A DNA stretch of 64,000 bases from SAR202 cluster bacterium bin22. Its GTDB lineage: Bacteria > Chloroflexota > Dehalococcoidia > Lucifugimonadales > UBA3495. The notes beneath the pieces are model-generated. The model ran no database searches and had not been told where the DNA came from. It was given only the letters and a program-made list of their open reading frames with translations. Numbering within the stretch: position 1 is the first letter of the stretch; each line of letters opens with the position of its first letter. The position numbers and the translations under genes were made by a program. Location of the stretch: positions 34,589 to 98,588 of the forward strand of contig MPMM01000008.1 of assembly GCA_002238505.1 (NCBI GenBank), written 5' to 3'. Below, piece by piece: positions 674 to 14,570 of this stretch.

Positions 674-713
674 TTGACGGGTTTATCTGGCTGGCAGTAT
701 CATGTTGTGATAC
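674..713 (+). promoter_or_regulatory. candidate hicA promoter with overlapping operator-like palindrome
   Basis: -35 TTGACG (674-679), 18-nt spacer, -10 TATCAT (698-703). A perfect inverted repeat GTATCA-N5-TGATAC (697-713) overlaps the -10 and ends 10 nt before the hicA ATG. The HicB part of the downstream ORF has an RHH-like DNA-binding tail. Confidence 0.4.
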
Positions 714-722
714 TATACGTCT

Positions 723-980
723 ATGCGAAAGAAACACCGAGAAACGTTGGCCGCGATTTTCCGCCACCCCACTCCGTCGGACATAAGGTGGCAGGACGCC
801 ATGGCATTGTTGCAGGCCTGTGGGGCCGAGATTGAAGAACGAGGAGGTTCGATGACGGCTGTGCTCCTCAACGATGAGTTGATATTGTTGCATCGGCCTC
901 ATCCAGGCAACGAGATTGACAAGGGTGCTGTGGCTTCGCTGCGCAGGTTCTTGGGGCAAGTTGGCATCGGGCCAACCTGA
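723..980 (+). CDS. hicA: HicA-family toxin (mRNA interferase type)
   Basis: 85-aa ORF. N-terminus 'KHRETLAAIFRHPTPSDIRWQDAMALLQACGAEIEERGGS' and C-terminus 'LHRPHPGNEIDKGAVASLRRFLGQVGIGP' fit the HicA subfamily consensus as I recall it. It lies 14 nt upstream of a HicB-type ORF, the usual toxin-first hicAB order. Confidence 0.75.
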   Translation: MRKKHRETLAAIFRHPTPSDIRWQDAMALLQACGAEIEERGGSMTAVLLNDELILLHRPHPGNEIDKGAVASLRRFLGQVGIGPT

Positions 981-994
981 AAGGAGGTAGATAG

Positions 995-2470
995 ATGGAA
1001 TATAACGGGTACCACGCGGTTGTGACCTTCGACGAAGAGTTAGGTATCCTTCACGGAGAAGTAATCAACACGCGCGACGTGATTACCTTCCAAGGAAAAT
1101 CTGTGGACGAGTTAGAGCAGTCCTTCAGAGCCTCGGTAGGAGAGTACCTCAAGATATGTGAAGAGAGAGGGCGAGCGCCTGACAAACCCTTCTCTGGACG
1201 GGTAGTTCTACGTATGGAACCAGAGACGCATCGTGCCGTTGCTGGGGCCGCTAGGATCAGCAGAAAGAGCCTCAATTCCTGGATCTTGGAAGCGATTGAC
1301 GGCCATCTGACTCGCGCTGATGAAGAGAAGGATCCGATAGAATGCGACCTCCAGTTGACTGCCTTGCCTGCCGACTCCGCATTCGAAGCATTTTTGGACG
1401 AAGTTTCACTACGGAATGGTGGGCAGGACCCGGTTAGTCCTGTCATACCCTTCTGGGTAGATCTTCACAACGGGCGCATATGGGCCAGCGACGTCCGGCC
1501 GGCTCATGAAGTCTTTACATTCGAGGCCAGGGCGCCCTATCACCACCCGGTCAGATACAGCCCATTGAGTGAGTTCCTCACAGATAAAGTGAACCTTAAT
1601 CAGAGCCGGCTGGATCGATTGGCAACCAGCGTCGGCGCGATAAACAGTCAGCTCAAAGAGCAACTAGCCGGCTACCAGAGCCTGCACCGGCATGGCTCTT
1701 ATGCCTCGGGGACTCTCATCAAGCCAGGGGGCGACAAAGGCGAGTACGACGCGGACATTCTGGTCGTGATGAACCAGAACTCTCAGTGGGAACCCAAAGA
1801 CTACCTCCTTGAGGTCCGCCGCACTTTGGCGACCAACAAGACTTACGCCGATAAACTAAGGTTGAAGACCAGATGTGTTACTGTGGACTATCCTGGGGAT
1901 TTTCACTTGGATGTGGTGCCGCGATTGGAGATGGAGGGCAAGCATTACGTCTGCAACCGGATTGACAACAAATTCGAGGAAACTGATGGCGATGGGTTCA
2001 GGGACTGGTTCAACGAAAAGAACCGCATCACCGATGGCAATTTGAAGCGGGTAGTCAGGTTGCTGAAATACCTCCGGGACCACAAGAACAGCTTCGCCGC
2101 CGAGTCGATTCTGCTGACCACCCTTGCCGGCAACACCATTAAGGCGTCGGATGAAGGGAAGGAAGAAGTGAGTACTGTTGCTGACACTCTGGTCACCGTC
2201 CTCACCCGAATGGACGATTACCTGCAGCAGCAACCCAGCATGCCAGAGATCAAGAATCCTGTTCTGGACACGGAAGACTTTGATCGGCACTGGAACCAGC
2301 GGAAATACGTGAACTTCAAGAACCGTGTGCACTCGTACGCCCAAACAGCGAAAAGGGCCAATAAGGAAGTCTACGGCGAAAAGGAGATCAAACTGTGGCG
2401 CGAACTCTTCGGTGACGCCTTTGGCGAACCCGCAAGCTCTGGCGGTAGTGGCCGGTTCGTGGAGCGGTAG
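995..2470 (+). CDS. HicB antitoxin fused to a SMODS/CD-NTase-like nucleotidyltransferase (single 491-aa ORF)
   Basis: aa 1-~107 'MEYNGYHAVVTFDEELGILHGEVINTRDVITFQGKSVDELEQSF..YLKICEERGRAPDKPFSGRVVLRM..RKSLNSWILEAI' form a full HicB with an RHH-like tail. aa ~190-491 carry the Pol-beta NTase signature: G234-S235, D252xD254 ('GSYASGTLIKPGGDKGEYDADILVV'), D306 ('HLDVVP'), then 'LKRVVRLLKYLRD' and a C-terminal 'WRELFG', as in SMODS/CD-NTases. There is no stop codon between the two parts. Confidence 0.7.
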   Translation: MEYNGYHAVVTFDEELGILHGEVINTRDVITFQGKSVDELEQSFRASVGEYLKICEERGRAPDKPFSGRVVLRMEPETHRAVAGAARISRKSLNSWILEAIDGHLTRADEEKDPIECDLQLTALPADSAFEAFLDEVSLRNGGQDPVSPVIPFWVDLHNGRIWASDVRPAHEVFTFEARAPYHHPVRYSPLSEFLTDKVNLNQSRLDRLATSVGAINSQLKEQLAGYQSLHRHGSYASGTLIKPGGDKGEYDADILVVMNQNSQWEPKDYLLEVRRTLATNKTYADKLRLKTRCVTVDYPGDFHLDVVPRLEMEGKHYVCNRIDNKFEETDGDGFRDWFNEKNRITDGNLKRVVRLLKYLRDHKNSFAAESILLTTLAGNTIKASDEGKEEVSTVADTLVTVLTRMDDYLQQQPSMPEIKNPVLDTEDFDRHWNQRKYVNFKNRVHSYAQTAKRANKEVYGEKEIKLWRELFGDAFGEPASSGGSGRFVER

Positions 2471-3162
2471 CATGGTCTCCATCGCCGCGGGACCGGAAAT
2501 TGTCACCGTCGGAGAACTGCGGCAAGTTCAAACTTTGAAGGTTGGACCCGGGTCCAACTAGCGTTTAGACCCGCCGCACCAGTGCAACAATCTTTAGGCG
2601 AATTTGACGGCCCTCCACCAGAATGTTGACAAGTGAGCTAATACGGCATTCCAAGAGCCATAACCAGAAACGCACACGATCTTGGTCGTTAGGAACGTAG
2701 GTGCTATCGGGACACCGTGTTGACCAGCGCGATGATCGACTCTACCGGAAGGATTGCTTTGAATATCCGCAAGTCCCAATATTTGGGGGCTGCCAGGGCG
2801 AAATTTCAGCTGTACCTGGTGGCTACCATGCCTAACCTGACCTTGGTGGCGAGAAAACCGGGCGGGCGGAACAGGCGGCGTTACCAGCAGCTGGGACACT
2901 TCTGTATGGAGGTGGACCATTCCTCCTTTGATTGCTTCCATGGGCGGCCAGATCGAGTCTTGATACCGGACTGGCTTGCACTGGCATCATCTTTGGAGTA
3001 CATGTCTCCGAGCAAGTATTCCTCGTCAAAGTTCTGCCGGGGGAGTGCAGAATTAACTACCATTTAGTCATTCGTACATGACCCGCACGCTGAGGCCAGC
3101 GAGCGAGCCGGAGCCTTCGGACCGCGTGACGTTAGCATAGAGAGCTTCCCCAGGAGGATCAT

Positions 3163-4020
3163 TTGATACAAGGAACAACCGTCATCCGGGAGGGAGCTAG
3201 GCGAGATATAGTCGACCTGATTCTTCTCAGGGGAGTGCCCTTTCACGGGCGTCTCAACTGCATGGATTTCCTTAAACGGGTCTGGCCTCTCGAAGAGATG
3301 CCGTCGGAGGACCATCGGTTCCGTACTGCGACCGGCGATATAGCGACTCACATTGGCTTCCGCGACTGGGACGACTCACACCTCCTTTTGGAGCGTTTGA
3401 AGCTAGCACGTGGACCCGACGAGGAGTTCCTGCGGTTTATTGAGGAGGTAGTGCACCCGTTGGTCGTCCCCGATGAAACGGAAGTGCTCAGCCTAGTTGC
3501 AGCCATCAACGGGCCCCTCGGAAGAGAAGGCTATCATCTTGTCGAAACAGACCGGATTTCCGGGAAGACCGTTTATGGGGCCAAACCGGTTACTTTCGTG
3601 CGGGCAGATCCTGACCCGACACCGTGGGAGAAGGTCGACAGGCAGGCTAACGCTATGCGTGAGCAACTTACGCTCGCCTTGTCTCACGGTGCGGCTGAGG
3701 AAGGGTATCAGGTCGTCGGCCATCTTGGGCGTGAGGTGATGATTTCACTTGCCCAAGCAGTGATTGACCCATCCGAAGCCATCGGCGAAGACGGCAAGCG
3801 CCCAAGCGAGACCGACGCAGTCCGATTGCTCGATGCCTACATCGGAAGGACATTGCCCGGCAGTGGCCATGAAGCTCTACGAAGGGCTGTCCGCGGAGTC
3901 GTTCAGGCCACAAGCGCGGTTCTACACGTCCGTAGCGCAACATACAAAGACGCCCTGCTGGCAGTGGAACTCGTCTCCGCCACTGTTCACCTCACGCACA
4001 TACTCGCAAACTATCCCTAG
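3163..4020 (+). CDS. AbiJ-N-terminal-domain-like protein with helical, possibly HEPN-like C-terminal half
   Basis: TTG start 5 nt after AGGAGG (3152-3157). The N-terminal half 'FLKRVWPLEEMPSEDHRFRTATGDIATHIGFRDWDDSHLLLERLKLARGPDEEFLRFIEEVVHPLVVP..LVAAINGPLGREGYHLVETDRISGKTVYG' matches the AbiJ-NTD3-type pattern from memory. The C-terminus is 'LHVRSATYKDALLAVELVSATVHL'. The CDS call is firmer than the function call. Confidence 0.5.
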   Translation: MIQGTTVIREGARRDIVDLILLRGVPFHGRLNCMDFLKRVWPLEEMPSEDHRFRTATGDIATHIGFRDWDDSHLLLERLKLARGPDEEFLRFIEEVVHPLVVPDETEVLSLVAAINGPLGREGYHLVETDRISGKTVYGAKPVTFVRADPDPTPWEKVDRQANAMREQLTLALSHGAAEEGYQVVGHLGREVMISLAQAVIDPSEAIGEDGKRPSETDAVRLLDAYIGRTLPGSGHEALRRAVRGVVQATSAVLHVRSATYKDALLAVELVSATVHLTHILANYP

Positions 4021-4316: not shown

Positions 4317-5555
4317 TCACGAGGGGCAATTTAATAAAGCCGCCGACCGATAGATTCCTATCGCGTCTGACTGAACGTGCTCGTAGGTCTGAACCGGACC
4401 CAGGGTGTTCAACAGTTGACCTACGAGCATAGCCAGTCCAACTGGAACCGCCATGAATAGATGGACCCGTCCGCCGGTTGAGTACTCGCTCCGGGCCCTG
4501 CGGGCCGCCTCAATTGTCTTCCGGGCAAGGTCGACAGCTTGGCCAGGGGTGTCCAAGGTGGCTCCCTGCCTGCTGTTGTGGTGGTTGAGATGCACGTAGG
4601 CTCTGAATGGACCAACTTCCCCCACCGACGACGCAACTGCCTGAGTGACGTCATTGTTGACGGAAACTAGAACTGCCAAATCGTCAGATCCCAGTTCTCC
4701 TTCCAGGATGTTGATTGAAAAGCCAGCATCTTCACGGCCGCAACTCAGGTTCCAAATTTGGCAATTGCCGTCGGGCATTCGCTGTTCCCAAGCGGTTTCG
4801 ATGCCGGAAGTGGCCATAAACTCAAAGCCCAAGGCAGTAGCTGCTGGCAGCGACGCGAATCCGCAGATCAATAGCTTTCTGTGGGGGAGCACTTGCTCGA
4901 CGGTGCTTCTTACATCGGTCAGGGCCGGCAGCAACTTCCGCTGCCAGTCCGCGGCAGACGCTTCACGGTTATAATCTCCTCCGAACCTGTGGCTCCAGTC
5001 GATTGCCAATGCCGACCCAAGTTGGGGTCCCATGGCCCGTCTGGTATTGAACGATATCCTCAGTGGCTCGCCTTGCGGCAGTCGTGCATCTATTGCCTGC
5101 AATCGCTGTTTGAGTACCTGATTCGCCACCCTTGAAATATCCGCATCTGTGGCAGGATCTGCGTCGAGCTTGATCGTGTTCCAGTTGGCTATATTGGTCA
5201 GGCTTACGCTGTTTCGTATCGCCTGCGCAGCTTCCTGGTAACCGAGACCGCCAGCGGCAACAGGCACCACAAAGAATCCGTCAGCCCTGCCGTGTCGTTC
5301 AAAGGCTATGGGCGCCTCGACGTTCCGTATCATCAGGGAGTCAGCCGTTTCAGGACTCATCCAGAGCACCACGTTGGCAATACCATCGTCTCGCAGGACC
5401 CTGCGAAGTTCCCTTTCGGTGGGTTCCGTGTTCAAGTCGTCGACGTCGCGCCAGGTGGGAATTCCCCGTTCGCGCTGCGCGGCAATTAAACGGGCGCATT
5501 CATCGCTTCGGCTCCTGCGATAACTGAGAAAGGAACGGCCGGTTGGGTCAGTCAT
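4317..5555 (-). CDS. CBASS effector, TIR-SAVED
   Basis: N-terminal TIR-like 'FLSYRRSRSDECARLIAAQRERGIPTWRDVDDL...VVLWMSPETADSLMIRNVEAP'. The C-terminal ~250 aa are SAVED-like and end 'VHLFMAVPVGLAMLVGQLLNTLGPVQTYEH'. Overlaps cap3 by 8 nt and is the last gene of the operon. Confidence 0.8.
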   Translation of the reverse strand: MTDPTGRSFLSYRRSRSDECARLIAAQRERGIPTWRDVDDLNTEPTERELRRVLRDDGIANVVLWMSPETADSLMIRNVEAPIAFERHGRADGFFVVPVAAGGLGYQEAAQAIRNSVSLTNIANWNTIKLDADPATDADISRVANQVLKQRLQAIDARLPQGEPLRISFNTRRAMGPQLGSALAIDWSHRFGGDYNREASAADWQRKLLPALTDVRSTVEQVLPHRKLLICGFASLPAATALGFEFMATSGIETAWEQRMPDGNCQIWNLSCGREDAGFSINILEGELGSDDLAVLVSVNNDVTQAVASSVGEVGPFRAYVHLNHHNSRQGATLDTPGQAVDLARKTIEAARRARSEYSTGGRVHLFMAVPVGLAMLVGQLLNTLGPVQTYEHVQSDAIGIYRSAALLNCPS

Positions 5556-6060
5556 TCATAATCTCCATCAAGCTTTGAGGCCCTTCGGGATCTAGCCTTA
5601 ACGTTCCCTGCTGGCGAGGGAAGACATGGGCCGTCAGAGCATAGCCATTACCGACGACCAGCAGGAGTGGTTCGGGACAATTGGCCTGGTCGCTGTTGGC
5701 AATCTCCTGCATCCGCCTGACGTCTTCGGCGCTTGGTTCTGGGGAGCTTCCCGGGTGGTAGTGCCATTCTCCCAGGTAGTACTCTTCCTTGGGCCACAGG
5801 GCCCGAAGGAGTTCCTGTAGTCCCTGGGTGCCCCGGTAGAAGGAAGTCCGTTTCCGCTGTGAGTCGGACGGCGGACCGGTAACGCGGGTTACGGTCGCGG
5901 TGTCGAGCCCAGCGTTGTATTGACCAATCAGCACACCACCGGTCTCCAGCGGGTGAGAAGCCAGGCACAAATGCCTGATTGTCCCCAACTGGTCATCACC
6001 AATGACCATTCGGAACCGCCCGTCCGGGGACCCGTAGGCAACGTCACCTCGGCAAGCCAT
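5548..6060 (-). CDS. cap3: CBASS Cap3, JAB/JAMM isopeptidase
   Basis: JAMM motif 'ETGGVLIG' ... 'GEWHYHPGSSPEPSAED' (E, HxH, S, D). 170 aa. Overlaps cap2 by 17 nt. Confidence 0.85.
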   Translation of the reverse strand: MACRGDVAYGSPDGRFRMVIGDDQLGTIRHLCLASHPLETGGVLIGQYNAGLDTATVTRVTGPPSDSQRKRTSFYRGTQGLQELLRALWPKEEYYLGEWHYHPGSSPEPSAEDVRRMQEIANSDQANCPEPLLLVVGNGYALTAHVFPRQQGTLRLDPEGPQSLMEIMND

Positions 6061-7852
6061 CGCTCTCGATCATTCTGATGCCCGTGAAGTTTCCGCCTTC
6101 GCTTTCCTGCTGCTCCAGAACGACAAAAATTGGAACCGTCGGGGGGCTGCCGATGGCCCATTCGATGAGCCTGACGGCGGCGGCGGTCATCATCCAGACG
6201 TCATCTATGCGGGCTGGATGCCTTGGGTGCCAGCAGCCAGGGCCGTCACGCGGTAGTTCGTTTGGGTCGTAATCCTCCCTCTCCAAACGAAGCCAGGGCT
6301 GAAGATGTTCCGTGAACTCTTCGCCGGGGAACGACGTACCGTGCGCGGCAAAGAAATACAGTCGGCGGGCGTGCAGGCCTAGCGAGACCGATATGAAGGT
6401 CTTGCTGTTGCGCCAGGCGAACCGGCTCATCGCTGCTATTGTTTCGTCATCCCCGGTGGTATCAATGACGACGCCTGCGCTGTCTATGCATTCGGGGCTC
6501 TGGGCAGCATCGGGTGGGAATGCTTCATCGAGGCCTGTGACTTGAGTGTGCAGCGTAGCGTCTCTGAGCCTGTCGGCCACCCCGGTTGCCTTTGCCCGGC
6601 CGATATCCGAAACCTGCAAGGTATGCCGCACCAGATTTCCAGCTTCCAGAAGGTCATGGTCGATAACGGCGAGATTACGGACACCGGCGCGAGCCAGCAT
6701 CTCGGACAGCACCGAGCCGACCGCACCCGCCCCTATGATGAGAGTTGGACTATGGGCTGCCACATCACTCAATCTGCCCCTGACGGAAATCTCTTCCTGG
6801 TGCCAGTTTTCAGTGGTGATCCACTGCAGAGCGGCGCCATCGGGTATGGCGCTTTGCTTATACTCCAGCCACTTGCCTTGCTCGTTGTTTCGGAATCCGG
6901 ACTGTATCCCGAAAATCTGGTCAGGAAGTCTCAGGGCAAGCCAGTGCATCCTCCGGTCCGGCCCATCCACTCTCTCCGGAATGGGAAAACCGATGAGCAG
7001 CATGGTGTAATTTGGGGGTGCCACAACGGCCGAACGCAAGAGTTTGTCCAGATCGATGGACTGCTCTTTCAACACCTGTCTGAGTTCACCCCACGAGGCC
7101 GGTACTTGATAGGGCTTCAATATAGGCGCACTCTCTGATCTGACCCAAACAACTGACTGTCGCCCTCGGGAATCCAAGCCCCGACCCCACTCCTGGTCGA
7201 TGGCCGTGCGGCCTTTTCCTACATCGAATCTGGTGACTGCCAAGATTGATGAAGCTGTTTCCAGGATCTCCATGTGGGCTTCTCCACATCGCTTGCCGCT
7301 AACTTGCCATTGCTCCAGGGTTGCGCCGCTCTCGGCGAAGACAACCTTCGTTATTTCCCCCGAGGGGACGAAAGGCAGTTCGTAGTAGTCGCCAGCCTCG
7401 ACAAGTTCATCGCGCGAAGCTAATTCAATCCAGGTTCGTGCTCGCTCCACATGCCAGGCCAAATTGCTGGAGGCTTCCGCTGGCTCGATGTCATACCCCC
7501 GTCGCCGCAGCGGCGCCGCTTCGGTCCAGGTGCACAACTTGCCCGTCCGCCAAGGGCAATCCGGTTTGCCAACTCCATTGAAGTTCTGATGGGGAAACGT
7601 TTGTGTTATTCCTCCCACCTTGGCAGGGAAGATGCCGATGCTGTCGTCCGGGTAGTCGTCGCCGACGAGAACGAACCAATCCGTCACCCGTGGTATTGGG
7701 CCACTGTCTACCGTATCCGCTGCAATGCGGAGATGGACTGCCCAGCGTCGCTCCCGCGAATACCACTTTGGCCCTTCCGATGTTATTACACCGGGCAGGT
7801 CTGCCAGGGAAGACAGGCCTGCCCGAAGTTTGTCGTTTAGCTGCATTTGCAC
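6044..7852 (-). CDS. cap2: CBASS Cap2, E2-E1 fusion (ubiquitin-transferase-like)
   Basis: N-terminal E2-like 'FPHQNFNGVGKPDCPWRTGKLCTW'. Central ThiF/E1 Rossmann fold 'LIIGAGAVGSVLSEMLARAGVRNLAVIDHDLLEAGNLVRH'. 602 aa. Confidence 0.85.
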   Translation of the reverse strand: MQMQLNDKLRAGLSSLADLPGVITSEGPKWYSRERRWAVHLRIAADTVDSGPIPRVTDWFVLVGDDYPDDSIGIFPAKVGGITQTFPHQNFNGVGKPDCPWRTGKLCTWTEAAPLRRRGYDIEPAEASSNLAWHVERARTWIELASRDELVEAGDYYELPFVPSGEITKVVFAESGATLEQWQVSGKRCGEAHMEILETASSILAVTRFDVGKGRTAIDQEWGRGLDSRGRQSVVWVRSESAPILKPYQVPASWGELRQVLKEQSIDLDKLLRSAVVAPPNYTMLLIGFPIPERVDGPDRRMHWLALRLPDQIFGIQSGFRNNEQGKWLEYKQSAIPDGAALQWITTENWHQEEISVRGRLSDVAAHSPTLIIGAGAVGSVLSEMLARAGVRNLAVIDHDLLEAGNLVRHTLQVSDIGRAKATGVADRLRDATLHTQVTGLDEAFPPDAAQSPECIDSAGVVIDTTGDDETIAAMSRFAWRNSKTFISVSLGLHARRLYFFAAHGTSFPGEEFTEHLQPWLRLEREDYDPNELPRDGPGCWHPRHPARIDDVWMMTAAAVRLIEWAIGSPPTVPIFVVLEQQESEGGNFTGIRMIESDGLPR

Positions 7853-7859
7853 GATACGG

Positions 7860-8891
7860 TTATCCGAATCGGCCCCCTCTCAGCTGGCTGGGTTGCTCAG
7901 GTCGGGTGTAGCCACGCTGGTTAGGTCGCAAAGGGTACCGGTTGCCAAAAAGCTGTTGCCAGCGCTGTGCGCTTTCGGCGGAACTGGTACTATTCATTGC
8001 CTGCCGAGCCACCTTGGCAGCCTTCTGGGACTTCCCGTGAAACTGGTCAAAGTCCTGACCGGTGATGCGCTTCATAACATTCTGCTCAGGCACACCGCGG
8101 TCCGGCGAAAAAGGGACCTGGCCCGAACTGGCGAACATTTGGTATCGCCGGTCAATTTCTTCGACGGTTTCCGTGAAGGCCTGGGCCAGGCTGGTGACCC
8201 CATCGGGGCAACAATCGCCGACGATGTGCTCCAGCGGGTAGCTTTTGGGATATTCCTGCTCCGGATGCTGGGACTGCCACCACCACTTGACCAGCCGCAC
8301 CACTGGCGTGTAATGGCCATTTGTCTTACTGTTCTTCTCCTGCGTCCACCTGATCTGCTCCCTGGGATGTGTGCGTTGCCAGTTGTGGGCCTCCCTGTCA
8401 GGAATCCACAGAGGTTCAGTCTTCCACTCCTGGCTGCCGTTCAAGGAGTCCAAGCCGGCGTACTCTTGCGCGAGTTCCGCCAGCAGGAGCCGCTCTTCCG
8501 TTTCAGACGGAGCTGAGGTGAGCACCACATCCAGCTTTACGCGAGCCATTTCGATGCCGATAGAACGGCCTTTCTTCTTCCATCTGCCGGGGTAGTGTCG
8601 GTTCAGGAAGGGAACCAGCAGATTCATCGCCTGTTCCGGGGTGAATTTGTGCCGGTCGACCCGGGTAACCACTACCACATCCACGTCCGGCTTGTCACCG
8701 CCTTCTGGACGTATACTGGTGTGGCGCCGGTAGCTGCCCTGGAGGAAGGTCTCAACAATCAGCGATTTAAGATCCTCGTCCGCCATGAGTCGTTCTCGAA
8801 GGCGGATATGAGCGTCCCGCAGTGCGCTCTGTTGAGTGTCAGTAGGGCTGATTTCGCTCACCAGTTCTCTCAATTGGTCGTTCAATTCCAT
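7860..8891 (-). CDS. CBASS CD-NTase (cGAS/DncV-like nucleotidyltransferase)
   Basis: 'FLQGSYRRHTSIRPEGGDKPDVDVVVV' (G52-S53, D69xD71) and 'KLDVVL' (D121). The C-terminus ends '...QLRGGRFG', a terminal Gly as expected for Cap2-dependent conjugation. GGAGG RBS (complement of 8897-8901). First gene of the operon. Confidence 0.8.
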   Translation of the reverse strand: MELNDQLRELVSEISPTDTQQSALRDAHIRLRERLMADEDLKSLIVETFLQGSYRRHTSIRPEGGDKPDVDVVVVTRVDRHKFTPEQAMNLLVPFLNRHYPGRWKKKGRSIGIEMARVKLDVVLTSAPSETEERLLLAELAQEYAGLDSLNGSQEWKTEPLWIPDREAHNWQRTHPREQIRWTQEKNSKTNGHYTPVVRLVKWWWQSQHPEQEYPKSYPLEHIVGDCCPDGVTSLAQAFTETVEEIDRRYQMFASSGQVPFSPDRGVPEQNVMKRITGQDFDQFHGKSQKAAKVARQAMNSTSSAESAQRWQQLFGNRYPLRPNQRGYTRPEQPSQLRGGRFG

Positions 8892-11041: not shown

Positions 11042-11932
11042 ATGCAAACGACTAGCACAATCGGTAACGGCAATTACATCATTCAGATTCAGGGCGATGG
11101 AATTTCCGTCGTTACTGGTTTACCACATCTGGAATTGACTCGTCGCCGTGGCCTAGCCAGTTATATTGGGACGGACCCTGGTACCGGTAAGCCATGCGAA
11201 ATCGACGTAATCCGCCCCCTCACTCGCAGCATTGATATGGTGGGCCGCGAGGCGGAATTAGCCGACTTGCGCGCTTGGCTGTACTTGGAGAAGCCTATTT
11301 CAGTGCGGGTAATCACCGGTGGCGCCGGCTATGGCAAGACTCGTTTGGCTTTGGAACTGATCGAGGAGATGGTACCGCAAGGCTGGCGTGCTGGTTTCCT
11401 GACTCGGGCGGAGATGAAGCGGTTTCGCGAACAACGGGACCTACGGGGTTGGGGCTGGAATGCGCCGATTTTGGCGGTAGTGGACTACGCCTCGGCCAGT
11501 ACTCGCGAACTCCATGCCTGGCTAAAGGAATTGGAAGACAACTCGGTCTGGGACGGGGCTGAGGCAAGTAATGGATTTCCACTACGCTTGTTACTGCTGG
11601 ATCGCCAAGCGGAACCCGGTGGTGGGTGGTGGGCAGAGGTGTTCGGGATTGGCGACGATGCAGCAGTGTTTGAGAGATTGGTCGTTCCGTCTGAACCCGT
11701 GGCCATGCGATCACTGGATAACGCCAACCAGAGACGGGCTATTCTGACAAAGACCTTGGAGAGACTCGGCAGCACGGTGATGTTGCCAGCGCCAGGCGAC
11801 GATTCGGATTTCGACCGCCGTCTCGCAGAGTTGACCTGGGCGGGTGTGCCACTGCTGCTGATGCTCGCTGCCGCCACCGCGGCGCGAGAAGGTTTCGGTC
11901 AGGTACTGGCAATGTGCCGTTGGGGTTCATAA
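11042..11932 (+). CDS. P-loop NTPase, STAND/NACHT-like, apparently C-terminally truncated
   Basis: Walker A 'ITGGAGYGKTRLALELIEE' and Walker B-like 'ILAVVDYA'. The N-terminus 'GNGNYIIQIQGDGISVV' is typical of STAND leader segments. Only 296 aa, with no sensor repeats, followed by non-coding or decayed DNA. Confidence 0.55.
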   Translation: MQTTSTIGNGNYIIQIQGDGISVVTGLPHLELTRRRGLASYIGTDPGTGKPCEIDVIRPLTRSIDMVGREAELADLRAWLYLEKPISVRVITGGAGYGKTRLALELIEEMVPQGWRAGFLTRAEMKRFREQRDLRGWGWNAPILAVVDYASASTRELHAWLKELEDNSVWDGAEASNGFPLRLLLLDRQAEPGGGWWAEVFGIGDDAAVFERLVVPSEPVAMRSLDNANQRRAILTKTLERLGSTVMLPAPGDDSDFDRRLAELTWAGVPLLLMLAAATAAREGFGQVLAMCRWGS

Positions 11933-13016: not shown

Positions 13017-14285
13017 TCAGTGAATGGTGCCGGACGCAGTTTTAGCCTTTTTGGTTATTCTCTTTTTGCCTCTTCGCCAACTACGCATGACTGGCATTGG
13101 TTTGGGTATCACAAAATTGGCCCAGCCTTGCATCAAGGACCTTCTCTTGTTAAATAGGTCACTCCTGGCGTAGGCCGTCTCCGTAGAATTACCCAGATTA
13201 TGGGCCAGAGCCGCCTCCCCTATTGCCCAGGGCGTGTCCGTCTGCTCCATGACCCAATCTCGAAAGCTGCTGCGGAAGCCGTGGGCCACGGCGGGAATTT
13301 CCAGCCGCCTGAGCAGGGTGGTGTAGGTCATGTCCGATAGTGGGCCGCCGTTCCTGCTGCCTGGAAACACCAGATCTCCGCACTCGAGCGCCAACTTCCT
13401 GGCCTCATCCAATATTCCCAAAGCCTGCCACGATAGTGGTACTCTGTGCTCCTTCCTTGCCTTCATGCGGTCTGCGGGAACGGTCCAAGTTTTGGAGTTC
13501 AAATCAATCTCAGACCACGAAGCCTTCCTCACTTCTCCGGAACGGGCTGCGGTAAGCACCAGGAACTCAAAGGAGAGTCGGGTCACTGCAGCGGCATTGG
13601 ATTTCCGCACTTTATCCAGGGCAGATGCGACTTCGGAGTAAGGTAGCGCCTGGTAGTGTTTCCTGGATTTAGTCCGCGGTGGCAAAACTCTGGTGATGGA
13701 CTTTCCCGCGGGATTATCGTCCCTCCACCCCTGGGCTATGGCCAAATCCAATACCGTTTCCATCCGCTGCCGAACTCGGCTGGCCGTCTCGGGTTTGGTG
13801 TGCCATATGGGAGTGAGGACCTGAAGGACATCCCCGCTGTTGATATCAGCCACCTTCCTGTTACCCAATACGGGGAATGCGTAAGTGGTCAGGGTATTCC
13901 GCCACTGAGCGGCGTGCTTGGCATTGGACCAGGTGGGGGCTCTCAGGACGATGACCTCCTCAGCAGCCTGGGCGAAGCTGGGACAGGAAGGCCGGCTCAG
14001 TTCAAGGGCTGCTTGATGTTTATCCGCCAAGGGGTCCAGCCCCTGCTTGATGGCTCTCTGATTTGAAGCAGCCTTCTCTCTGGCGTCTGCCAGTGACACC
14101 GACCCGAGGCTGCCCAAGCCGATGTTGTGGCGTTTGCCCTTGATGGTGACGCGTTGGACCCAATGTTTGGACCCGGACCGTTCCACCCGGAGAGTGAGGC
14201 CGTTGCCATCGGAATACTGTCCGGGTTCCGAAACAGTCCTGACCTGGGCGGCGGAAAGTCTGTGGGTTGGCGGCATGGGGTACAC
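13017..14285 (-). CDS. int: tyrosine integrase, P4-like (DUF4102 N-terminus)
   Basis: 'LSAAQVRTVSEPGQYSDGNGLTLRVERSGSKHWVQRVTIKGKRHNIGLGSLGSVSLADAREKA' is a typical P4-type arm-binding N-terminus. The C-terminal catalytic region includes 'HGFRSSFRDW' and '..LAH....TETAYARSD'. It lies adjacent to the tRNA 3' end. Confidence 0.9.
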   Translation of the reverse strand: MYPMPPTHRLSAAQVRTVSEPGQYSDGNGLTLRVERSGSKHWVQRVTIKGKRHNIGLGSLGSVSLADAREKAASNQRAIKQGLDPLADKHQAALELSRPSCPSFAQAAEEVIVLRAPTWSNAKHAAQWRNTLTTYAFPVLGNRKVADINSGDVLQVLTPIWHTKPETASRVRQRMETVLDLAIAQGWRDDNPAGKSITRVLPPRTKSRKHYQALPYSEVASALDKVRKSNAAAVTRLSFEFLVLTAARSGEVRKASWSEIDLNSKTWTVPADRMKARKEHRVPLSWQALGILDEARKLALECGDLVFPGSRNGGPLSDMTYTTLLRRLEIPAVAHGFRSSFRDWVMEQTDTPWAIGEAALAHNLGNSTETAYARSDLFNKRRSLMQGWANFVIPKPMPVMRSWRRGKKRITKKAKTASGTIH

Positions 14286-14478
14286 CTCAAATCATCGTGG
14301 TGTCCCCATTATACAGCAACTGTATACCACTTTGTGTACCAACAATTAAGCGACTGCCCCGTATTTCGGGGGACTAATTGAGACTGCCTCGGAATCAGTA
14401 CTGGAGCTATTACGTACTAATACGTACGTACTGACACGGACAAAATGGAGGAAAACTTGGTTGAGGTAAATGAGACAG

Positions 14479-14570
14479 TGGCGGAGGGAGTGGGATTCGA
14501 ACCCACGATCCCAGTTTCCCAGGATAAGCGCTTAGCAGGCGCCCGCACTAGACCACTATGCGATCCCTCC
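14479..14570 (-). tRNA. tRNA-Ser (anticodon GCU)
   Basis: 92-nt cloverleaf read by hand on the minus strand: acceptor GGAGGGA/TCCCTCC, anticodon stem GGCGC/GCGCT with loop CU-GCU-AA, a long variable arm, T-arm GTGGG-TTCGAAT-CCCAC and an encoded CCA. Confidence 0.9.

Follow-up and report, generated by a model that had tools for sequence, protein, structure and literature searches.

We identified a fusion between a toxin-antitoxin (TA) antitoxin and a nucleotide cyclase in a 64,000-nucleotide stretch of contig MPMM01000008.1 from SAR202 cluster bacterium bin22 (this whole stretch is hereafter called the window, and its position numbers are used throughout). A two-gene plus-strand operon within the first 2.5 kb of the window starts with the toxin gene hicA, and its second gene encodes a HicB antitoxin joined in frame to a cGAS/DncV-like nucleotidyltransferase (CD-NTase) of the type found in CBASS, the anti-phage signaling systems that work through cyclic oligonucleotides. 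The fusion open reading frame (ORF), 995-2470 (+), is a single frame of 491 codons that comprises HicB (aa 1-107), an extension (aa 108-190) and the CD-NTase (aa 191-491). The original prediction, made from the letters of this DNA, had proposed this single frame, a HicB with a ribbon-helix-helix (RHH) domain at aa 1 to ~107, a hicA gene 14 nt upstream, a palindrome at 697-713 and a SMODS/CD-NTase catalytic set (GS at 234-235, D252/D254 and D306), and had regarded the combination as undescribed. All of these points were borne out by profile searches, structure prediction, literature and database checks, and comparison with homologous loci. In addition, four features emerged that the original prediction did not contain, namely a type II CBASS next door that encodes a TIR-SAVED effector, the identity of aa 108-190 as a HicB extension domain that existed before the fusion, loss of the Cap2-type tail from the fused cyclase, and confinement of the family to one narrow lineage.

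The possibility that the fusion arose during assembly can be dismissed. Its architecture recurred in 15 protein clusters at 90% identity (P0001-P0015), which are 67-96% identical and 477-532 aa long, and two Dehalococcoidia metagenome-assembled genomes (MAGs) of GTDB carried an intact fusion ORF, as did independent contigs that came from at least nine metagenome samples. Every segment of the fusion, including the junction, was under purifying selection, and the loci had diverged to 0.5-1.6 synonymous substitutions per site (dS). The ratio of nonsynonymous to synonymous substitution (dN/dS; Nei-Gojobori method, mean over eight loci) was 0.08 for the HicB segment, 0.15 for the NTase segment and 0.13 for hicA; it was highest, at 0.33, for the extension at the junction. 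When the window copy of the NTase was compared with each other locus, values were 0.13-0.25. A missed stop codon or frameshift was therefore ruled out by the recurrence on independent contigs and MAGs and by a junction dN/dS below 1.

Occurrence of the fusion was limited. Among 1.84 billion representatives at 50% identity, the full architecture was found in one cluster only, and its members were found only in Dehalococcoidia, to which the host bacterium itself belongs. No proteins of the fusion family were detected in NCBI or UniRef, and the JGI metagenomes scanned yielded no further fusion loci. A phage origin was considered and rejected, as no relative of the fusion was found among IMG/VR viral contigs. 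In the datasets searched, the fusion family did not extend beyond a single narrow lineage of Dehalococcoidia. Our literature searches returned no paper in which HicB occurs together with a CD-NTase or SMODS, and nothing relevant that links HicA or HicB with CBASS or a cyclase. The fusion is not described in the literature searched and appears to join two known systems as a new domain architecture.

The C-terminal part of the protein could be assigned with high significance. Pfam SMODS matched aa 191-343 (E 9.5e-32), a DncV-like NTase model matched with E 7.9e-8, and the PADLOC models for CBASS cyclases covered aa 192-488 (E 1.7e-105 and 3.5e-103). AlphaFold2 (AF2) modeled this part with a predicted local distance difference test score (pLDDT) above 90, and Foldseek matched the model to CdnD (7d4j, E 1.6e-16), CdnB (7ljo, template modeling score 0.81), CdnC and CdnG, with E values from 1e-16 to 1e-14. 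Residues G234, S235, D252 and D254 were invariant, and D306 was nearly so, in 61 fusion and stand-alone homologues. The fused domain has both the GS...[DE]x[DE]...[DE] active site and the two-lobed fold that define CD-NTases, and we predict that it is catalytically competent.

The nearest relatives of this domain were very abundant stand-alone cyclases of 336 aa, along with forms of ~575 aa that have a SEC-C motif at the C-terminus. Identity of the nearest stand-alone cyclases was 72-77% to the window copy and up to 90% to other fusions. Where inspected, the closest of them shared an operon with a patatin phospholipase gene, and in some cases a ThiF/Cap2-like gene and CapH/CapP-like regulators were present as well. 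The SEC-C zinc-binding module was either fused to the cyclase C-terminus (~575 aa) or encoded by a gene of its own that follows a 319-aa cyclase (L004:10059-10742; L006:7001-8731). A glycine-terminated C-terminal tail is the handle typical of CD-NTases that are regulated by Cap2 in type II CBASS. The stand-alone 336-aa relatives end in a low-complexity tail whose last residues are ..NEARRFG, whereas the window fusion ends in ..GSGRFVER; the ..NEARRFG tail was absent from 14 of the 15 fusion clusters, which end in ..GRFVER or ..LFGDKFG instead.

The fused and stand-alone cyclases have also exchanged sequence. In a neighbor-joining tree, NTase domains of the fusions were polyphyletic among stand-alone cyclases. 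In a sliding comparison of fusions P0004 and P0009, identity was ~100% over aa 1-240 and 376-465. Over aa 241-375, by contrast, P0004 was only 50-83% identical to P0009 and 90-100% identical to the stand-alone cyclase P0081, which identifies this region as a gene conversion tract. Together, the tract and the polyphyly suggest that the fused domain is exchangeable with working CBASS cyclases. The same protein (L061:8001-9434) carries, along with its tract from a stand-alone cyclase, a D306A substitution in HLDVVP; this was a single case.

A cyclase of this clade was also found behind a different N-terminal module. At L005:1578-4538, beside a patatin CBASS, a protein (representative P0121, 996 aa) combined a STAND-type AAA_16/TPR region with a C-terminal CD-NTase that was 97.5% identical to the cyclase of the operon itself (L005:7001-8011), which suggests that the addition of an extra sensor module to the same cyclase is a recurrent design in this lineage. 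This protein ends in ..LFGENFG and has no Cap2-type tail.

The N-terminal part of the fusion is a complete HicB. Pfam HicB matched aa 51-101 (E 2.9e-14), and the PHROG family annotated as HicB-like antitoxin matched aa 1-109 (E 2.2e-34). With a deeper alignment, AF2 modeled the N-domain (aa 1-60) with pLDDT above 90 and the RHH with pLDDT 80-90, giving a beta-beta-beta-alpha topology followed by strand-helix-helix. The best PDB folds found by Foldseek were HicB of B. pseudomallei (6g26/6g1c) and HicB3 of Y. pestis (4p78), although these matches were weak (E 8e-3 to 0.16). Stand-alone HicB proteins of the same lineage were 73-80% identical to the HicB of the fusion, and stand-alone HicA was 76% identical. 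In the stand-alone hicAB pair of L014, for example, identity was 76% for HicA and 79% for HicB, and the operator was the same; its HicB ends directly after ..ELTH, the point past which the fusion protein continues.

The segment beyond that point, aa 108-190, is not a linker. The same segment ends a group of stand-alone extended HicB proteins of ~190 aa (P0270-P0284 and P0189), which have the motif PVSPVIPxWxD..G..W.SD and are 52-64% identical over 90-98% of a 195-aa query. Their genes adjoin hicA and have no cyclase nearby. Since this extended subfamily shares the helix and beta-meander, we consider aa 108-190 an inherited C-terminal extension (CTE) of HicB, and its presence in cyclase-free HicB proteins indicates that the fusion is an extended HicB plus a CD-NTase. 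The search for N-terminal homologues did not return the fusion proteins themselves, which we took as a quirk of the tool. The CTE was modeled with pLDDT 60-79 and had no match in Pfam and no fold match in PDB. As judged by homology, every part of the fusion operon except the cyclase is already present in an ordinary TA module of the same lineage. Next to one 190-aa extended HicB gene, we also observed a directly upstream gene (L057:5224-5988) for a 254-aa protein with Fic and HicA_toxin matches, which looks like a Fic-HicA fusion toxin.

The toxin of the operon matched Pfam HicA_toxin (PF07927) with E 7.3e-8 and 32.8 bits (cut-off 27 bits) and PHROG 8887 across its full length with E 1.2e-19. 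In other fusion loci HicA was 80-91% identical, and its position was unchanged. Neither a single-sequence nor a profile search detected PDB sequence relatives of this 85-aa protein, and domain searches gave no match to any membrane-effector or nucleotide-binding family. In HicA toxins that have been studied, the catalytic histidine is part of a GSH motif. The Pfam match aligned aa 23-79 with profile positions 1-55, and, in a manual register against the consensus, the position of GSH would be occupied by G42-S43-M44; in the same manual register, the stand-alone HicA of L014 has R44 at the position of M44. Two other histidines, H57 and H60 (HRPHP), were invariant.

An intact hicA was present directly upstream of the fusion in the window and in L004, L009, L010, L051, L052/53, L054/55 and L062. 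In L001, L002 and L003, hicA is interrupted by an IS607-like element that carries a serine recombinase and a TnpB/Cas12f-like gene, while the fusion gene is intact; the insertion lies at hicA codon ~59 (L001:6141-7842), equivalent to window nt ~897. In addition, hicA of L056 and of L061 apparently has a frameshift around codons 8-10; both are long-read assemblies, so that these frameshifts may be errors.

Regulatory signals upstream of hicA support the view of the operon as a TA unit (Table 1). The putative promoter matched the sigma-70 consensus at 10 of 12 positions in a consensus scan, and both its -35 and -10 hexamers were kept in homologous loci. Position 674 had been put forward as the start of the gene pair, but it belongs to the -35 hexamer. 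The palindrome, with its core GTATCA-N5-TGATAC at 697-713, had arms (AGTATCA/TGATACT) that were invariant in eight loci, seven with fusions and the stand-alone hicAB of L014, and a spacer that varied. Since an operator would be expected to show such a pattern, we read the palindrome as an RHH operator. Autoregulation through the RHH of HicB is known from studied systems (PMC6327479, PMC10865869), and by analogy the RHH of the fusion would bind this site. The distance of 14 nt between the hicA stop codon and the fusion ATG was the same in all intact homologous loci. Class 4 hicAB modules are those with hicA upstream and a HicB that has a C-terminal RHH (Gerdes 2024, PMC10865869), and the gene order here, with hicA directly upstream of the antitoxin gene in one operon, is that of class 4.

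Table 1. Features of the hicA/fusion operon and of the genes downstream of it (window positions).
Feature	Position	Strand	Description and basis
Putative sigma-70-like promoter of the operon	674..703	+	-35 TTGACG 674-679; 18-nt spacer; -10 TATCAT 698-703
Operator-like inverted repeat	696..714		AGTATCA-N5-TGATACT; overlaps -10; presumed HicB-RHH site
hicA	723..980	+	85-aa long-form HicA toxin; Pfam HicA_toxin, PHROG 8887 'toxin'
Shine-Dalgarno of fusion gene	982..987	+	AGGAGG, 7 nt before ATG; read off the sequence
Fusion, HicB part	995..1315	+	toxin-binding N-domain (aa 1-60) and RHH (aa ~66-107); Pfam, PHROG, AF2
Fusion, CTE	1316..1564	+	aa 108-190; one helix and three-strand beta-meander; motif PVSPVIPFWVD..G..W.SD
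Fusion, CD-NTase	1565..2470	+	cGAS/DncV-like; aa 191-491 and stop; PADLOC, SMODS, AF2, Foldseek
AbiJ_NTD3 protein	3163-4020	+	285 aa; AbiJ_NTD3 E 6.4e-41; C-terminal half unassigned; weak PADLOC PDC-M01A match
Type II CBASS operon	4317..8891	-	context, not shown to belong; Pfam, NCBIfam, PADLOC
TIR-SAVED effector	4317-5555	-	effector of neighboring CBASS
Cap3	5548-6060	-	JAB; neighboring CBASS
Cap2	6044-7852	-	E1/E2; neighboring CBASS
Neighboring CD-NTase	7860-8891	-	ends ..GGRFG

The fusion was found in eight distinct genomic contexts. Besides the window, where the type II CBASS with TIR-SAVED is convergent, these were a convergent patatin-SMODS-SEC-C locus with CapH/CapP (L004/9/10), a same-strand CapH-CapP-patatin-cyclase-ThiF locus (L056/L062), the L056/L062 locus without patatin-cyclase-ThiF, in which the fusion carries D306A (L061), patatin fragments (L001-3), and three with no CBASS within 8 kb (L051; L052/53; and L054/55, which has insertion sequence (IS) elements on its flanks). 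A CBASS operon or remnant was therefore present within ~4 kb of the fusion in five of the eight contexts (the window, L001-3, L004/9/10, L056/L062 and the remnant in L061). The occurrence of both CBASS-adjacent and CBASS-free contexts suggests that the mobile unit consists of the two genes, often parked beside CBASS.

In the window, a complete type II CBASS lies 1.8 kb downstream of the fusion gene on the opposite strand. Its Cap2 and Cap3 belong to that minus-strand operon, and the fusion gene has neither Cap2/Cap3 in its own operon nor a glycine-terminated tail, the features by which type II CBASS is recognized. A paralogous relationship between the fused NTase and the neighboring cyclase was rejected on BLASTP identity of only 22%, in one aligned C-terminal stretch. 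A CBASS cyclase is accompanied in cis by a cyclic-nucleotide effector, but the next same-strand gene after the fusion encodes the AbiJ_NTD3 protein. This gene was considered as a component of the system and rejected, since none of the other fusion loci contained it; its defence role is probably separate. The original prediction also held that no effector follows the fusion. This was confirmed for 2471-3162, where no coding sequence could be recognized, tblastn with patatin, SEC-C and CapH/CapP-like proteins and with proteins encoded next to the fusion in homologous loci found no remnant and Rfam gave no match, so that a degraded effector gene was rejected there; it did not hold farther downstream, where TIR-SAVED is encoded together with its own CD-NTase, Cap2 and Cap3. 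A DNA alignment of ~84% identity with L001-L003 spans the fusion gene and continues to nt 2775, so that ~300 bp (2471-2775) has non-coding-like similarity to L001-L003, not to L004, with no consistent frame and no Rfam match.

Two further observations concern the surroundings of these genes. A tyrosine integrase gene (Arm-DNA-bind_3/Phage_int_M/Phage_integrase; 13017-14570, minus strand) adjoins tRNA-Ser(GCT) at 14479-14570, and this pair probably marks where an integrated defence island ends, an island that would extend from window position 1 to ~14.5 kb. Between the CBASS operon and the integrase, an ORF at 11042-11932 (+) had weak matches to nSTAND/AAA_16 ATPases.

The explanation that we tentatively favor, with somewhat less than even confidence, is a functional hicAB operon of the class 4 type in which the antitoxin bears an auxiliary cyclase; this cyclase would be active and would send its signal to CBASS effectors in trans. 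The HicB part would neutralize HicA and repress the operon at the palindrome, and the cyclase part would produce the cyclic nucleotide that resident patatin-type cyclases make, serving as an additional signal source for CBASS effectors encoded elsewhere, often next door. Gating of the cyclase would be the task of the TA module rather than of Cap2/Cap3, and could involve autoregulated expression, RHH-mediated oligomerization and occupancy by HicA. An infection that perturbs the HicA-HicB complex would then both free the RNase and switch on nucleotide signaling. In favor of this proposal are the conservation of the fusion, its intact TA part, a genuine cyclase that exchanges sequence with resident ones, the parallel STAND/TPR fusion of L005, the nearby CBASS in five of eight contexts and the tail missing from 14 of 15 clusters. 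Two candidate readings of the original prediction may still apply: coupling of the cyclase to release of the HicA toxin, and control of the cyclase through HicB-RHH autoregulation, of which the autoregulation part is supported by the conserved operator.

Several observations weigh against this proposal. That HicA and HicB gate the cyclase is something we infer entirely, and in the full-length AF2 model aa 62-188 had pLDDT below 50 and no confident inter-domain contacts were seen. The effector next door in the window is TIR-SAVED with an unrelated cyclase, the 64-kb window contains no patatin gene, and three of the eight contexts (L051, L052/53 and L054/55) are without a CBASS effector within 8 kb. 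Adjacency to CBASS may only reflect clustering in defence islands or the origin of the fusion, and mobility as two genes fits a self-contained system equally well. Finally, gene conversion needs sequence similarity only and is no proof of shared function.

A self-contained two-gene abortive infection system is one alternative, which we regard as possible though considerably less likely. Here the cyclase would sense infection or act as a bait that resembles resident CBASS cyclases and draws attack by phage anti-CBASS factors, and its engagement, inhibition or degradation would release HicA as the effector. This idea fits a minimal mobile unit of two genes, hicA and the fusion gene, which in some cases has IS elements on its flanks and lies far from CBASS; it also fits the high conservation and tight linkage of hicA, and gene conversion from resident cyclases would keep a decoy similar to its real targets. 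That a cyclase paired with a toxin can guard against phage counter-defence has precedent in Panoptes and PanDA. However, catalytic residues were kept in all but one cluster, and a bait needs none, though conversion could maintain them. The loci in which hicA is disrupted by an IS (L001-3) or apparently frameshifted (L056/L061) retain an intact fusion gene, which argues that the fusion persists without the proposed effector. In addition, we know of no mechanism that would transmit an event in the cyclase domain to the HicB-HicA interface.

It is about equally conceivable, and likewise less probable than an auxiliary cyclase, that the fusion is a chimera without integrated function, created when a selfish hicAB captured a cyclase by read-through, so that the halves act independently or the cyclase is simply carried along. 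The distribution, which is narrow and seems young (a single cluster at 50% identity, in Dehalococcoidia only), the separate pre-existence of both parts in the lineage (73-80% identity for HicB, 72-90% for the cyclase) and the frequent IS activity around the loci are all consistent with such an origin. Yet the fusion has persisted over the synonymous divergence given above with purifying selection on each segment and on the junction, and it survives in at least eight genomic contexts with no lineage in which the gene has been split again.

Somewhat more doubtful is an integrated guard, in which the HicB-tethered cyclase passes engagement of a look-alike to HicB-HicA, with release of the RNase and/or a nucleotide signal. 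In that case, gene conversion that keeps copying resident CBASS cyclases would maintain a look-alike for phage anti-CBASS factors or for the infection cue to which those cyclases naturally respond.

We consider it improbable that a constitutive product of the cyclase helps to keep the system silent, for example if it stabilizes the complex of HicB and HicA by way of the CTE, and that depletion of this nucleotide by sponges or nucleases of a phage frees HicA. Panoptes reportedly works in this way, with a constitutive minimal cyclase that represses a toxin and guards against phage counter-defence. PanDA is a further cyclase-toxin pair with such a guarding role (bioRxiv 10.64898/2026.08.10.743972). 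Both provide a precedent for repression of a toxin by a constitutive minimal cyclase; loss of the Cap2 regulatory tail could mean unregulated activity, and the CTE does lie between antitoxin and cyclase. Against this, the CTE and the long HicA are unchanged in cyclase-free modules, and therefore have not evolved as nucleotide sensors, and no nucleotide-binding domain was detectable by Pfam and PDB fold searches.

Least likely is the suggestion, made in the original prediction, that the NTase domain nucleotidylates HicA and thereby neutralizes it as MntA does HepT: type VII TA systems offer a precedent and the NTase is tethered beside a toxin-binding domain, but this NTase, which shares 72-90% identity with ordinary patatin CBASS cyclases, is a complete CD-NTase of two lobes and no minimal MNT, aa 1-107 already form a complete conventional antitoxin, and conversion tracts from CBASS cyclases replace the catalytic core, an overwriting that a specialized protein-modifying enzyme would not tolerate.

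How cyclases of most type I and type II CBASS stay off and respond to infection is still an open question, and the fusion physically joins two otherwise separate anti-phage strategies. In this protein, the C-terminal tail that serves as control handle for Cap2/Cap3 appears to have been swapped for an N-terminal autoregulated TA module, with an analogous swap to a STAND/TPR module in the same lineage. If the TA module does gate the cyclase, cyclic-nucleotide immunity would for the first time be linked to the logic of type II TA systems (a labile complex, repression that is conditional, and RNase release), and the operon would offer a compact two-gene system for studying cyclase activation. If the cyclase is a bait, the guard/decoy idea shown for Panoptes and PanDA would be extended; and if the integrated guard were correct, it would form a direct bridge from type II TA to cGAS-like signaling, analogous to the integrated decoys of plant nucleotide-binding leucine-rich repeat (NLR) receptors. 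Significance is limited by the small size of the family, its occurrence in uncultured organisms and the inferred nature of its mechanism. Current annotation pipelines would label the fusion gene only as an orphan cyclase.

Compared with known systems, the operon resembles class 4 hicAB in gene order, the 14-nt spacing, the HicA_toxin match, the HicB N-domain fold, the RHH and an operator-like palindrome that overlaps the -10 hexamer. However, its HicB does not end with the RHH but is followed in the same chain by an extension of ~80 aa and a CD-NTase of 300 aa, and its HicA is a long form without a sequence-level relative in PDB. A survey of 14 HicA contexts included none with a nucleotidyltransferase or cyclase (Gerdes 2024, PMC10865869). 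To the patatin (CapV)-type CBASS cyclases of Dehalococcoidia, which belong to type I or type II-like operons, the fused domain is linked by 72-90% identity, the catalytic residues, the predicted fold and gene conversion, but it differs from them in the N-terminal 190-aa HicB module, the TA promoter and operator, and the lack of a same-operon effector and of the ..NEARRFG tail.

Type VII TA systems of the MntA/HepT type are defined by a minimal MNT and a HEPN RNase with an Rx4-6H motif. The hicA/fusion operon shares with them and with other NTase-containing TA systems an NTase-fold domain on the antitoxin side and an RNase toxin, whereas its NTase is a full 300-aa CD-NTase, its toxin is HicA rather than HEPN, and a conventional antitoxin domain is present. 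Panoptes and PanDA are likewise two-gene units of a nucleotide cyclase and a toxic protein, and sensing of phage anti-CBASS measures may be common to all three; their cyclases, however, are mCpol or DAC and their membrane (2TM) effectors bind the nucleotide, in contrast to the SMODS/CD-NTase found here and to its small RNase partner, which has no recognizable sensor domain. A similar design is the STAND/TPR-CD-NTase fusion of L005 (P0121-type, ~990 aa), which has a cyclase of the same clade at its C-terminus and the same truncated end (..LFGxxFG), but which carries a STAND-type NTPase (AAA_16/TPR) at its N-terminus instead of a TA antitoxin.

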